Shown here: positions 7,092-36,107 of the stretch, one piece after another
Layout: each line of letters starts with the position of its first letter
Numbering within the stretch: the stretch's first letter is position 1
Assembly (NCBI RefSeq): GCF_002854065.1
Contig: NZ_CP024147.1
DNA length: 64,000 nt
Origin: Escherichia coli
GTDB lineage: Bacteria; Pseudomonadota; Gammaproteobacteria; Enterobacterales; Enterobacteriaceae
Strand: one strand, 5' to 3'
Position numbers and translations under genes: made by a program
The notes under the pieces: generated by a model
What the model was told of the DNA's origin: nothing
The model's input: only the letters and a program-made list of their open reading frames with translations
Databases searched by the model: none

Positions 7092-7350
7092 GCCGGAGGC
7101 GACGCTGCGCGTCTTGTCCGGCCTACGAGAGTGTAGGTCGGATAAGGCGTTTACGCCGCATCCGACAATCGGCGCACCCTGCCGGAGGCGATGCTTACGC
7201 GTCTTGTCCGGCCTACGGAAATGTAGATCGGATAAGGCGTTTACGCCGCATCCGACATTCGGCGCATCCATGCCGGAGGCGACGCTGCGCGTCTTGTCCG
7301 GCCTACGAGAGTGTAGGTCGGATAAGGCGTTTACGCCGCATCCTACAATC
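7092..7350. repeat. Three tandem ~90-bp REP/BIME units in gabT-gabP spacer
   Basis: Unit gccggaggcgacgctgcgcgtcttgtccggcctacg...cggataaggcgtttacgccgcatccg repeated three times with few substitutions; classical REP palindromes. Confidence 0.9.
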
Positions 7351-23339: not shown

Positions 23340-23425
<86 letters not shown>

Positions 23426-29626: not shown

Positions 29627-30334
29627 ATGAATACCCAACTTAAATACGGGAGAACCTGGCATTATCCTTTCTCCCCCGGCACCACCAGCGATGACCGCAT
29701 TAACGCCGATTACTGGCAGGATTTACAGGCCATCGCGCAACTGGTGCATACAGAAAAACTCGACGGCGAAAATAACTGCCTTAACCGCTACGGTGTGTTT
29801 GCCCGTTCCCATGCCGCGCCTACGCAGTCGGCATGGACCTATAAAATTCGCCAGCGTTGGCAACTGCTGAAAAACGATCTCGGCGACCTGGAGTTGTTTG
29901 GCGAAAATCTCTACGCCGTTCATTCCATTGAATACCGCGCGCTGGAACAGGACTTTTACCTGTTTGCCGTTCGCTGCCAGGATATGTGGCTGAGCTGGGA
30001 AGAGGTGCAGTTTTACGCCGCCCTGTTTGATTTCCCCTGCGTTCCCGAAATCTCCGGCCCGCAGCCGGGGAATGATGAAAAAAGCTGGCAACGTGATTTT
30101 CTGGCACTGACCAATGCGCGCGGCGCGTTCGATCCCTGGGATACACAAACCGGGCAACCCTGTACTCTGGAAGGCATTGTCAGCCGGAATCGTGATGCGT
30201 TTTCCGTCGCTGACTTTTCGCATAACGTCTTCAAGTATGTGCGCAAAAATCATGTCAAAACCACTGTGCACTGGAAACGACACTGGCAACGGGCGCGGAT
30301 GGCCCATGAGTTCGCTTATGGAGAACAGTCATGA
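29627..30334 (+). CDS. ATP-dependent RNA ligase-like nucleotidyltransferase (Rnl2-type catalytic domain only)
   Basis: 235-aa ORF with covalent nucleotidyltransferase motifs in canonical order and spacing: motif I EKLDGEN, motif [12 protein letters not shown], motif IV LEGIVSR, motif V FKYVRK. Confidence 0.75.
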
Positions 30335-31443
30335 TTTGGCAGCTTACCGACGATAAACGCTGGTCGACACTACGCCAGCGTTTCAGTTGGGTTGAGGAGA
30401 TGCATCACACGCCACAAGACCCGGAGCATCATGGTGAAGGTGACGTCGGCGTGCATACCGAAATGGTGCTTAACGCCCTTGTTACTCAGCCAGAATTCCA
30501 GCAACTCCCCGCTCAACAGCAGGAAGTTTTATGGGCGGCGGCGTTATTACATGATGTTGAAAAGCGCAGCACTACCGTGCAGGAAAACGGACGTATTCAG
30601 TCGCCGGGCCATGCTCGTCGGGGCGAACTGACGGCCCGGCTGATTTTGTGGCGCGATATCCCAACGCCGTTCGTGCTGCGCGAGCAAATCGTTGCGCTGG
30701 TGCGTCTGCATGGGTTACCGCTATGGTTACTGGAACGTCCGGAACCGGAGCGTTTGTTGCTCACGGCTGCAATGCGCATCGACACGCGTCTGCTCACTTT
30801 GCTTGCTCGTGCCGATCTGCTTGGTCGCCAAAGCCCGGATCAGCAATCAATGCTGGAACGCATCGATCTGTTCGAGCTGTTTTGCCAGGAGCAACAGTGT
30901 TGGGGAAAAGTGCGCTCGTTCGTGTCTGATTCCGCACGCTGGCATTACCTGACCCATGAGCAAAGTTCTCCTGATTTTGTTCCCTGGGAGGCTGAACCTT
31001 TTGAGGGCATTTTGCTGTGTGGCTTACCGGGTATGGGCAAAGATCGCTATATCAATGAACAGTGCCAGGGAATGGACGTTATCAGCCTTGATGATATGCG
31101 GCGGCGAATCAATGCCAATCCGGACGACAAAACCGCCACCGGGCGTATTGTGCAACAGGCAAAAGAAGAGGCACGCGTTTTTTTACGCCAGAAAAAGCCG
31201 TTCATCTGGAATGCAACGAACTTTACCCGCCAGCTTCGTAGCCAGCTCATCAGCCTGTTTACGGCTTACGGCGCACGAGTAAAAATAGTTTATCTTGAAG
31301 TGCCATGGGCGCAATGGAAGCAGCAAAATGCCAGACGCGAGTATGCAGTTCCTGAAGCGGTCGTGATGCGGATGGCCTCAAGGCTGGAAGTTCCTCAACC
31401 TGATGAAGCACATAGCGTGGAGTATCGGGTGATTGAAAGGTAA
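30331..31443 (+). CDS. Bifunctional HD-domain phosphoesterase / 5'-OH polynucleotide kinase (HD-Pnk architecture)
   Basis: 370-aa ORF; N-terminal HD metal-ligand pattern ([18 protein letters not shown], further His and Asp); C-terminal P-loop GLPGMGKD followed by [17 protein letters not shown] and [16 protein letters not shown], resembling the T4 Pnk kinase domain; start overlaps upstream stop (ATGA). Confidence 0.75.
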
Positions 31444-32075: not shown

Positions 32076-32148
32076 GAAAGACGCGCATTTGTTATCATCA
32101 TCCCTGAATTCAGAGATGAAATTTTGGCCACTCACGAGTGGCCTTTTT
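32076..32148 (+). ncRNA. micA: MicA (SraD) small regulatory RNA
   Basis: Sequence gaaagacgcgcatttgttatcatcatccctgaattcagagatgaaattttggccactcacgagtggccttttt recognised as MicA, including the terminator hairpin and U-tail. Confidence 0.9.
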
Positions 32149-34777: not shown

Positions 34778-34924
34778 GGTCTTCTCGCAAGTCGAAAAAT
34801 ATGACGCTACTTTAGCGTAATTGCTTGATTTTGTCGCTGATGGCGAAGGAGAAGAAAATTCAGGAAATGGATAAAGTAGTTATTTAGAAATGAGATATTT
34901 TTGAAGGAAATTTTTTGGAGAAGA

Positions 34925-35057
34925 TGGTGCATCCGGGAGGATGACTCACTGGCGTTCGCCCTTCGGGCCGTTGCTAAAGCAACGTTATCCTTCCTGGTGC
35001 CTGCGGTTAATTCCGCTACCTCTTCGATATCTTCATTGCTGAAGATTTCGGAGAATA
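34925..35057 (-). repeat. Spacer element A beginning with a 17-nt tRNA-Arg 3'-end fragment (copy 1 of 2)
   Basis: tggtgcatccgggagga duplicates the tRNA-Arg 3' end, followed by ~115 bp containing palindrome cgttgctaaagcaacg; ~85% identical to element B. Confidence 0.7.
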
Positions 35058-35134
35058 TGGTGCATCCGGGAGGATTCGAACCTCCGACCGCTCGGTTCGT
35101 AGCCGAGTACTCTATCCAGCTGAGCTACGGATGC
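35058..35134 (-). tRNA. argQ: tRNA-Arg (anticodon ACG)
   Basis: Reverse complement gives GCATCCGTAGCTCAGCTGGATAGAGTACTCGGCTACGAACCGAGCGGTCGGAGGTTCGAATCCTCCCGGATGCACCA; gene name assigned by position in the array. Confidence 0.95.
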
Positions 35135-35236
35135 ATCGGGAAAATTTATTTTACTGCTGATATTGATATCGCTACTAAAGCCATATCAAATAAGAAAATC
35201 CATCTTAACCATCATCACTGATGATTACGGAGAATA

Positions 35237-35313
35237 TGGTGCATCCGGGAGGATTCGAACCTCCGACCGCTCGGTTCGTAGCCGAGTACTCTATCCAGCT
35301 GAGCTACGGATGC
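35237..35313 (-). tRNA. argZ: tRNA-Arg (anticodon ACG)
   Basis: Identical 77-nt tRNA-Arg copy. Confidence 0.95.
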
Positions 35314-35375
35314 ATCGGGAAATTTATTTTACTGCTGATATTGATACCGCTACTAAAGCCATATCAAGTAAGAGA

Positions 35376-35452
35376 TGGTGCATCCGGGAGGATTCGAACC
35401 TCCGACCGCTCGGTTCGTAGCCGAGTACTCTATCCAGCTGAGCTACGGATGC
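35376..35452 (-). tRNA. argY: tRNA-Arg (anticodon ACG)
   Basis: Identical 77-nt tRNA-Arg copy. Confidence 0.95.
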
Positions 35453-35516
35453 ATCGGGAAACTTACTTTACTGCAGATTTTTTGATACCGCTACTAAAGC
35501 CGTATCAAGTAAGAGA

Positions 35517-35651
35517 TGGTGCATCCGGGAGGATTACTCGCCTTGCGGCTCGCCCTTCGGGCCGTTGCTAAAGCAACGTTATCCTCCCTGGTGCCTGCGG
35601 TTAGTACCGCCACCTCTTCCATACCTTCATCGCTGAAGGTTACGGAGAATA
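35517..35651 (-). repeat. Spacer element B beginning with a tRNA-Arg 3'-end fragment (copy 2 of 2)
   Basis: tggtgcatccgggaggatt then a diverged copy of element A with the same internal palindromes. Confidence 0.7.
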
Positions 35652-35728
35652 TGGTGCATCCGGGAGGATTCGAACCTCCGACCGCTCGGTTCGTAGCCGA
35701 GTACTCTATCCAGCTGAGCTACGGATGC
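35652..35728 (-). tRNA. argV: tRNA-Arg (anticodon ACG)
   Basis: Identical 77-nt tRNA-Arg copy. Confidence 0.95.
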
Positions 35729-35731
35729 AAA

Positions 35732-35824
35732 TGGCGGTGAGGCGGGGATTCGAACCCCGGATGCAGCTTTTGACCGCATACTCCCTTAGCAGGGGAGCGC
35801 CTTCAGCCTCTCGGCCACCTCACC
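35732..35824 (-). tRNA. serV: tRNA-Ser (anticodon GCU), long variable arm
   Basis: Reverse complement gives GGTGAGGTGGCCGAGAGGCTGAAGGCGCTCCCCTGCTAAGGGAGTATGCGGTCAAAAGCTGCATCCGGGGTTCGAATCCCCGCCTCACCGCCA. Confidence 0.95.
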
Positions 35825-36107
35825 ACACGCCTCTTACGAGTGCTTCGAAGAACTTGTTTATCGCTCATCGTCGCTGCGTGGCGCACATATTACTTTCTGA
35901 GACTTATAAGTCAAACAATTTTTCCCACACTTTTATCGTTTGCACACTTCACGCTCAATTAGTCTGTAAAAACGTCAAAAAGAGTGTTTTATCAACAGAA
36001 AAAACGGAAGTCTGACAGATAGCAGTAATGTAAAAAAATGGAGACTTAAGTTGAATGAACGGGAGTAAAGCGAAAAGACTATAGAGTGAAGGAGAAATTT
36101 TGAGGGT

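Follow-up and report, generated by a model that had tools for sequence, protein, structure and literature searches.

A 64,000-nucleotide (nt) stretch of Escherichia coli DNA (assembly GCF_002854065.1, contig NZ_CP024147.1; referred to here as the window) carries on its minus strand the csrA–serV–argV/Y/Z/Q–yqaB locus, in which a tRNA-Ser gene is followed by four tRNA-Arg(ACG) genes. Two structured elements and a 40-nt remnant within this array are almost certainly tRNA-linked repeats (TLRs), whose hallmark is a segment of 18–19 bp matching the 3' end of the upstream tRNA or rRNA gene (PMC8144298, Stenum et al. 2021). The locus as a whole is, in our judgement, likely to be best explained by TLR modules, with processing at the RNA level and recombination at the DNA level. 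The TLRs of the arg operon are already known. The family was first seen by Egan and Landy in 1978, and the catalogue of Rudd (1999) comprises 22 TLRs at 10 K-12 loci (both as cited in PMC8144298); raQ, raZ and raV are named in the supplementary strain table of PMC8144298, as deletions made along with argY/Z/Q in a strain that lacks all 22. An early functional claim for the TLR copy at tyrT was later retracted, and no function is known for the family (PMC8144298). The MG1655 RefSeq annotation includes rttR in the tyrT operon and has nothing annotated between the arg tRNAs.

Along the direction of transcription, the array consists of three modules (Table 1): A, the 77-nt tRNA-Arg gene; B, an element of 133–135 nt; and C, a leader of 62–64 nt. 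Their order is Ser-A-B-C-A-C-A-B'-C-A-B, where B' denotes the first ~40 nt of a B element. An earlier sequence-only reading of the window had described four identical tRNA-Arg genes and serV on the minus strand, which ARAGORN and Rfam bear out; all 77 nt are the same in the four genes and in K-12 argV/Y/Z/Q. In a genome matching the query at 100%, the annotated gene order is recA-recX-alaS-csrA-tRNAs-yqaB-yqaA-gshA-luxS. The ~60-bp block that the same reading had found in three spacers is leader C, a repeat family (D4; 57 nt, three copies, 95% and 65% identity) standing before Arg2, Arg3 and Arg4. Its sequence, UCUCUUACUUGAUAYGGCUUUAGUAGCGGUAUCAA...UUUCCCGAU, includes a hairpin (UUGAUACGGC...GCGGUAUCAA) with one pair that is C-G, U·G or U-A across the three window copies and two pairs that are compensatorily altered in E. 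cloacae.

The B elements start at the base after the tRNA-Arg CCA (UAUUCUCCG...), on the same strand as the tRNA. Two elements of ~130 bp, each beginning with a copy of the tRNA-Arg tail, had been reported. The sizes (135 and 133 nt) and the copies (19 and 18 nt) hold, whereas the orientation does not: the copy seems to come first because the plus strand was read, and on the minus strand, the one transcribed, it comes last. The final 19 nt of TLR 1 (35535..35517) and the final 18 nt of TLR 2 are the tRNA-Arg 3' end. The 17-mer TCCTCCCGGATGCACCA occurs six times in the window, in the four tRNAs and at 35533..35517 and 34941..34925 (none expected in shuffles), and no copy lies elsewhere in the 64 kb outside the array. 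The truncated third element, which had been missed, retains hairpin 1 (CAUCA-GUGA-UGAUG), has neither the core nor the tRNA-tail copy, and is fused to leader C3; the spacer that holds it, spacer 3, measures 102 nt here and 198 nt in K-12, where the element is full.

Table 1. Features of the tRNA array and its flanks, in window coordinates.
Feature	Coordinates	Strand	Length (nt)	Basis or remark
Candidate sigma-70 promoter of the operon, TTGACT-16-TAATAT	35887..35914	-		Consensus match only
tRNA-Ser(GCU), serV	35732..35824	-		ARAGORN; Rfam tRNA 56.8 bits; tRNA-Ser annotated in identical strain
tRNA-Arg(ACG) copy 1, argV position	35652..35728	-	77	ARAGORN, Rfam
TLR 1, K-12 raV equivalent	35517..35651	-	135	Rfam RtT partial, model R1, fold, K-12 alignment
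Leader C1, before Arg2	35453..35516	-	64	D4 repeat family
tRNA-Arg(ACG) copy 2	35376..35452	-	77	ARAGORN, Rfam
Leader C2	35314..35375	-	62	D4 repeat family
tRNA-Arg(ACG) copy 3	35237..35313	-	77	ARAGORN, Rfam
Truncated TLR at K-12 raZ position	35197..35236	-	first ~40	Comparison with 198-nt K-12 spacer; fold
Leader C3	35135..35196	-	62	D4 repeat family
tRNA-Arg(ACG) copy 4, argQ position	35058..35134	-	77	ARAGORN, Rfam
TLR 2, K-12 raQ equivalent, final module of operon	34925..35057	-	133	Rfam RtT sub-threshold, model R1, fold
Weak terminator-like hairpin, then T run	34804..34818	-		Consensus scan, not above shuffles

Assignment to the TLR family follows from position, tail copy, orthology and likeness to TLRs of other operons. 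Both full elements lie directly 3' of a co-oriented stable-RNA gene. K-12 carries B elements after argV, argZ and argQ, at the same locus, with near-identical sequence and the same 18–19-nt tail copy, and because K-12 has these matching modules the window elements are raV (35651..35517) and raQ (35057..34925), with raZ truncated. The alignment of TLR 1 with K-12 raV shows few differences over 134–135 positions, and TLR 2 is 100% identical in O157:H7 and O145 genomes.

Direct alignment of the arg elements with the tyrT repeats reveals a common 16-mer and adjoining blocks. Their common core reads AACGUUGC-N4-GCAACG-R-CCCGAAGGG-(variable hairpin)-GAGU(A/C)AUCC, with GAGUAAUCC after the hairpin, and past it comes the tail of the local tRNA (CCUUCCCCCACCACCA in Tyr, CCUCCCGGAUGCACCA in Arg). 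The core hairpins of the arg elements are CGUUGC-N4-GCAACG, then CCC-GAA-GGG, then the variable one, flanked by tandem G·A. Covariance model R1, for which 21 Tyr/Lys/Pro cores and no Arg sequence served as the training set, was run unfiltered over the whole window and finds raV at 63.2 bits (E ~2e-17) and raQ at 56.7 bits (E ~2e-15), the next match having an E-value of 0.44; these E-values are rough, and the scores are inflated because the 16-mer used to collect the training cores occurs in the arg elements too. The Rfam family RF00391 (RtT RNA), scanned at a permissive threshold, matches raV partially, in its 3' half (34.2 bits, E 1e-4 in a 752-nt search), and raQ over its full length (22 bits, sub-threshold), whereas the K-12 tyrT repeats score 133–137 bits. 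With 22.0–34.2 bits against a curated gathering threshold of 45 bits, the window elements are relatives of that family and not members. Plus-strand Rfam matches to Plastid-ycf2, HPnc0260 and P14 are artefacts, due to the antisense of tRNAs or to chance.

The conserved palindromes noted earlier are present, and are better described as RNA-type hairpins, several with GNRA loops and with compensatory substitutions. Predicted folds are far more stable than those of shuffled sequences (raV, -63 kcal/mol, z -6.1; raQ, -47.5 kcal/mol, z -4.45). The 5' part is predicted to form a GNRA-capped hairpin ~10 nt past the tRNA and a second hairpin; in TLR 1 these are followed by a 78-nt domain (35594..35517) that by itself folds at -39.2 kcal/mol (z -5.2, ensemble frequency 51%), and the 3' domains of E. 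cloacae and Kosakonia take the same predicted fold. This domain is predicted to be closed by a helix of 12–13 bp between GCACCAGGGAGGAU and the tRNA-derived strand AUCCUCCCGGAUGC, which encloses three hairpins and leaves the final ACCA unpaired.

Substitutions among nine arg TLRs (Escherichia, E. albertii, Enterobacter, Kosakonia) agree with this fold: 91.8% of cells pair, compared with 32–47% when partners are slid, and seven pairs are altered on both sides, chiefly in hairpin 1 and the third core hairpin. The third hairpin covaries at 5/5 pairs in the Tyr/Lys/Pro set, including a C-G↔U-A change closing the tandem G·A; its position holds at least 10 distinct stem sequences, and some copies are without a hairpin there. 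In the closing helix, the 5' strand varies with the linked tRNA: it is GGGGAAGGAU opposite AUCCUUCCCC for Tyr, CGUAUAGGAU opposite AUCCUAUACG for Amphritea Lys, GGGGGGGGAU opposite AUCCCCCCCC for Amphritea Tyr and GGGAGGAU opposite AUCCUCCC for Arg, with mean pairing of 9.0/11 for cognate and 7.5/11 for non-cognate combinations. The arg-type 5' strand is the same at 11/14 positions as the acceptor 5' strand joined to the T-stem 5' strand; the 3' domain would therefore have the geometry of an acceptor/T-arm minihelix, with the three-hairpin core replacing the T loop.

The family extends well beyond the arg operon; its modules occur in stable-RNA operons of enterobacteria and of certain further gammaproteobacteria. 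Scanning one genome per species with the 16-mer GCAACGRCCCGAAGGG gave at least 120 loci, about two-thirds of which are chance matches in GC-rich genomes; 39 loci were studied in detail (36 from the scan, the window and two K-12 loci). The taxonomic range given here is a lower bound. At these 39 loci the core lies 49–140 nt past a co-oriented tRNA or, in tandem arrays, past the preceding TLR; arrays of 2–4 copies are frequent, and the linked tRNAs are Tyr, Arg-ACG, Arg-CCG, Lys, Pro and Ser-UGA. An exact 18–19-nt tail copy of the upstream tRNA (Tyr, Arg, Lys or Pro) closes 45 of the 57 elements. Hosts include at least Escherichia, Citrobacter, Enterobacter, Klebsiella, Kosakonia, Pluralibacter, Erwinia, Tatumella, Mixta, Gilliamella, Amphritea and Marinobacterium, the core being kept from Enterobacterales to Orbales and Oceanospirillales.

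Six further cores (L019, L033, L093, L096, L098 and L099) end in the 5S rRNA 3' end (AACTGCCAGGCATCAAAT) and stand upstream of tRNA-Thr or tRNA-Asp/Trp; this rrn-operon form corresponds to the rrnB T1–T2 spacer of cloning vectors. A partial copy of the 5S region apparently lies just ahead of these cores. The long-type TLRs (Tyr, Lys and Pro; L002, L030, L042, L051, L054, L071 and L085) have two additional features between closing helix and core. One is a hairpin whose 3' strand, NNAGGUUCGA, resembles the T-stem 5' strand plus T loop; the match is exact for Klebsiella Lys GCAGG and Pro GGAGG, and the match to the cognate T stem is inconsistent across copies. The other is a hairpin, CGAGC-loop-GCGAG, that contains tandem G·A. 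The long-type core thus has the look of a piece inserted in the T loop of an incomplete tRNA copy. A hammerhead-like reading of GGAUGAGAA...GGUUCGAG in the long types was discarded, the conserved GAAA element being absent by eye. The motif AACGTTGC-N4-GCAACGGCCCGAAGGG-hairpin also occurs at L009, L039, L040, L095 and L123 (in Stenotrophomonas and Pseudomonas xionganensis, among others), where the 1.5 kb upstream contains no tRNA, and is apparently tandem in P. xionganensis. Two loci on one IMG/VR contig (L148 and L149, 3300047160_006838) are long palindromic repeats with the same 16-mer (GGTGTCTGGAACCGTTGCCG-GCAACGGCCCGAAGGG-...CGGTTCCAGACACC) and are probably another repeat family, unrelated to TLRs.

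The sequence-only reading had proposed integrase-mediated recombination, or else processed spacer RNAs, to account for the tail copies. In the first case they would be attL/attR-type scars of a decayed phage or island integrated at the tRNA-Arg 3' end by a tyrosine integrase. Direct repeats running from the T loop to the tRNA 3' end are the usual look of integrase core sites; the repeats here start in the T loop, reach the 3' end and have a constant length of 18–19 nt, and the presence of TLRs differs among strains. Yet repeats of this origin should flank an element with an adjoining integrase, and annotation shows no integrase or mobile-element gene within ±12 kb; the array is flanked by recA, recX, alaS and csrA at one end and by yqaB, yqaA, gshA and luxS at the opposite end. 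The ~115 nt between the repeats is a conserved structured sequence without a conserved open reading frame (ORF). Nor is the intervening DNA unrelated between targets: one core, often in tandem (2–4 copies), lies behind Tyr, Lys, Pro and Arg tRNAs and 5S rRNA, not a usual integrase target, and each copy bears the 3' end of its local gene. The 16-mer scan of 2.9 million IMG/VR viral contigs found true TLRs in three, two of them at the extreme end of the sequence stretch (neighbouring integrases were not checked), and the matches in the phage collection were only Salmonella chromosome contigs and one 7-kb fragment; apart from host flanks, phage and viral collections are thus essentially free of copies. 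Strain differences, furthermore, are precise excisions of a 133–135-nt unit, not islands. An integrase origin of the repeats is thus very improbable; only the constant 18–19-nt length of the repeat, with its start in the T loop, still leaves room for the family to have arisen by recombination.

Comparison across strains had been suggested as a check on that proposal, with conservation everywhere at identical spacing counting against it. The spacing is not identical; strains differ because repeats have been precisely lost or gained, and mobile elements have no part in this. Five E. coli operon architectures were read. K-12 and EC2648 have raV, raZ and raQ in full, and the window strain differs from them in the 40-nt remnant at the raZ position. 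O157:H7 ECP19-2498 has the same remnant and a full raQ and lacks raV, spacer 1 being exactly the 64-nt C leader. In 07_3337 raV and raZ are full and raQ is absent, with the trailer directly after the Arg4 CCA; in HH194M raV and raZ are full, the locus is cut before the raQ position, and an additional TLR stands after Arg2. Where a TLR is missing, it has been cut out exactly between the tRNA tail and the copy of that tail. The 102-nt spacer of the window type was found at ≥99% identity in ~314 of 5,426 complete E. coli genomes, O157:H7 included. Tandem duplication of tRNA-plus-spacer units, also proposed earlier, fits both the modular architecture and this polymorphism.

Arg-type TLRs occur in other species as well: in Salmonella houtenae, in E. 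cloacae (two) and in Kosakonia (at least three). The terminal arg TLR of S. enterica subsp. houtenae (L186, 1174-1310) is decaying, with the tail copy GGATGCGTCA and substitutions in two core hairpins, and the internal one is intact save for one mismatch in the tail copy. From the variation among strains and species it follows that the family has long been present at this locus, that any single copy can be spared, and that its own repeats make it unstable.

Owing to the lack of an intrinsic terminator separating the TLRs from the tRNAs, the repeats are likely to be co-transcribed within the serV–arg polycistronic precursor. The enzymes of tRNA end maturation would then probably excise the TLR, because its 3' domain resembles an acceptor/T-arm minihelix, releasing a folded, tRNA-sized RNA of ~76–78 nt or a ~135-nt form; RNase E would cut after CCA, 3' exonucleases would halt at the helix, and RNase P would possibly act on the 5' side. 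Relatives provide the analogy. The rttR gene is annotated as a 171-nt RNA in the tyrT operon, ending at the CCA of the repeat, and for RrA/B/F, which are both transcribed and processed, the 3' end maps 3 nt beyond the repeat, a position that the authors credit to recognition of the repeated end by RNase E (PMC8144298). Discrete RNAs from the arg TLRs are plausible by comparison with rtT RNA and RrA/B/F. At the DNA level, strain comparison shows that the tRNA genes (77 bp), the tail repeats (18–30 bp) and the leaders (62 nt) serve as recombination substrates, giving rise to precise loss or gain of single TLRs and to altered operon architecture.

Several points weigh against this account, beside the inflated scores of R1. 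Its processing step, in which the TLR mimics a tRNA, rests on analogy and predicted structure, and we give it about an even chance. The closing helix is nearly invariant within the arg type, so that its support comes from comparison between types, and since any strand complementary to the tail resembles tRNA 5' strands, mimicry and descent from a tRNA are indistinguishable. The S. houtenae copies, with 1–2 mismatches in the tail copies and a terminal element mutated in two hairpins, look like sequences under relaxed constraint. TLRs are also dispensable, given that individual copies are absent in natural strains and that a strain lacking all 22 TLRs exists (PMC8144298).

These last observations are also what a neutral origin would predict, with TLRs as by-products of unequal crossing-over or slippage in the tRNA array that are transcribed and degraded like any spacer and play no part as RNAs: natural strains lose copies without obvious harm, Salmonella copies decay, and the literature assigns TLRs no known function (PMC8144298). 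Against neutrality stand the pairing kept through two-sided changes, within the arg type (four genera) and across tRNA types; the co-variation of the closing helix with tRNA identity; the retention of the core across three orders; and folding energies far below those of shuffles. Together these suggest that the structure is under selection, and gene conversion between copies could mimic part of the signal. We therefore regard a purely neutral origin as unlikely, if deserving of attention.

Regulation in trans, by titration of a protein or as a small-RNA (sRNA) sponge in the manner of RrA/B/F or 3'ETS-leuZ, has some precedent. In vitro the rrn TLRs bind both Hfq and CsrA, and a functional tRNA-spacer RNA is known in 3'ETS-leuZ (PMC8144298); the conserved arg TLR fold offers tandem G·A motifs as possible protein sites, and the locus adjoins csrA. 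The 19 tRNA-operon TLRs, however, score <0.01 in a CsrA-binder predictor (PMC8144298), and the arg copies are dispensable and variably present, which together leave this role improbable. That the elements code for a small arginine-rich peptide, like tpr in the tyrT repeat, is barely credible. TLR 1 does contain a sense-strand ORF of 42 codons (35622..35494), and tpr is annotated within rttR in K-12; but raQ, with ATC in place of the ATG, lacks a corresponding ORF, the raV frame through the common core differs from the tpr frame, and substitutions keep base pairs, not codons. Retro-priming, considered for the resemblance of 18 nt to the length of retroviral primer-binding sites, misfits the 5S-linked copies, whose repeat runs beyond the mature 3' end.

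Among the known systems close to the arg elements is the RtT RNA/rttR of the tyrT–tyrV operon (178-bp repeat, Egan and Landy 1978; RF00391), which likewise follows a tRNA immediately, finishes with 19 nt of the tRNA tail, and has the core and a closing helix formed with the tail copy. The arg elements differ in being 133–135 nt long instead of 175–178 nt, in lacking the two internal hairpins of the tyr type and having two different 5' hairpins of their own, and in ending with the tail of tRNA-Arg, not tRNA-Tyr. RrA, RrB and RrF (rrnA, rrnB and rrnD) belong to the same family, have the same core and end in 18 nt of the upstream stable RNA; unlike the arg elements, they follow 5S rRNA between two intrinsic terminators, T1 and T2, and bind Hfq and CsrA in vitro, the tRNA-operon TLRs being predicted non-binders of CsrA (PMC8144298). 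Processing likewise frees the 3'ETS-leuZ RNA from a tRNA precursor, glyW-cysT-leuZ (Lalaouna et al. 2015, as cited in PMC8144298); as described there, this RNA works by pairing with RyhB/RybB, and it is not a TLR. The att sites of integrative elements in tRNA genes have a similar direct repeat, from which the arg TLRs are set apart by a 133–135-nt unit without integrase or island and by a structured core common to several operons.

A more far-reaching model, which we consider quite unlikely, would combine these features: TLRs would be acceptor/T-arm mimics trimmed to a tRNA-sized RNA (78 nt, 35594..35517), the three-hairpin module with tandem G·A would bind some factor, and the family would have spread among Tyr, Arg, Lys, Pro and 5S genes by capturing local 3' ends, for example by recombination in the T-loop sequence GGUUCGAAUCC.

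The elements are thus a re-discovery of an obscure, little-cited repeat family, one whose arg members will recur as flagged anomalies because RefSeq leaves them unannotated, and which renders the serV–arg tRNA operon structurally polymorphic among strains. Three additions are made here: across tRNA types the closing helix varies with the identity of the tRNA, the range of the family is wider than Enterobacterales, and in natural strains TLRs undergo precise excision between the direct repeats. They are testable leads and not a new kind of system. tRNA-Arg(ACG) is the only TadA substrate among tRNAs, and for this reason its gene number and expression have phenotypic effects (PMC13170351). Mimicry of a TadA substrate by the TLRs was rejected, since the loop of hairpin 2 is UACUAA/UAAUAA, without UACG.

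The flanks of the operon carry weak signals. The candidate sigma-70 promoter is a weak assignment because such sites are no commoner than in shuffles. A consensus scan found no intrinsic terminator directly 3' of Arg4 or raQ, and the terminator-like hairpin in Table 1 lies ~105 nt past raQ and ~25 nt ahead of the yqaB start. The trailer (34804-34924, minus strand) is rich in C and U and has no strong intrinsic terminator past the last TLR; termination may therefore be Rho-dependent or leaky into yqaB.

Elsewhere in the window, between luxS and emrB (29627-31443, plus strand), a 235-residue RNA ligase (PF09414, E 4e-28) is encoded next to a protein of 370 residues that ends in an AAA_33 P-loop kinase domain at its C terminus (E 1e-31). 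From their domains the two look like an RNA-repair-type pair; RefSeq names them 'RNA ligase family protein' and 'ATP-binding protein', and PADLOC returned no match. The MicA sRNA (32076-32147, plus strand; Rfam 83.9 bits) lies between gshA and luxS, as expected. Three matches to naRNA4 (CssrE), a REP-derived family of nucleoid-associated RNA, at 7136-7213, 7226-7303 and 23342-23419 on the plus strand, are ordinary REP clusters.

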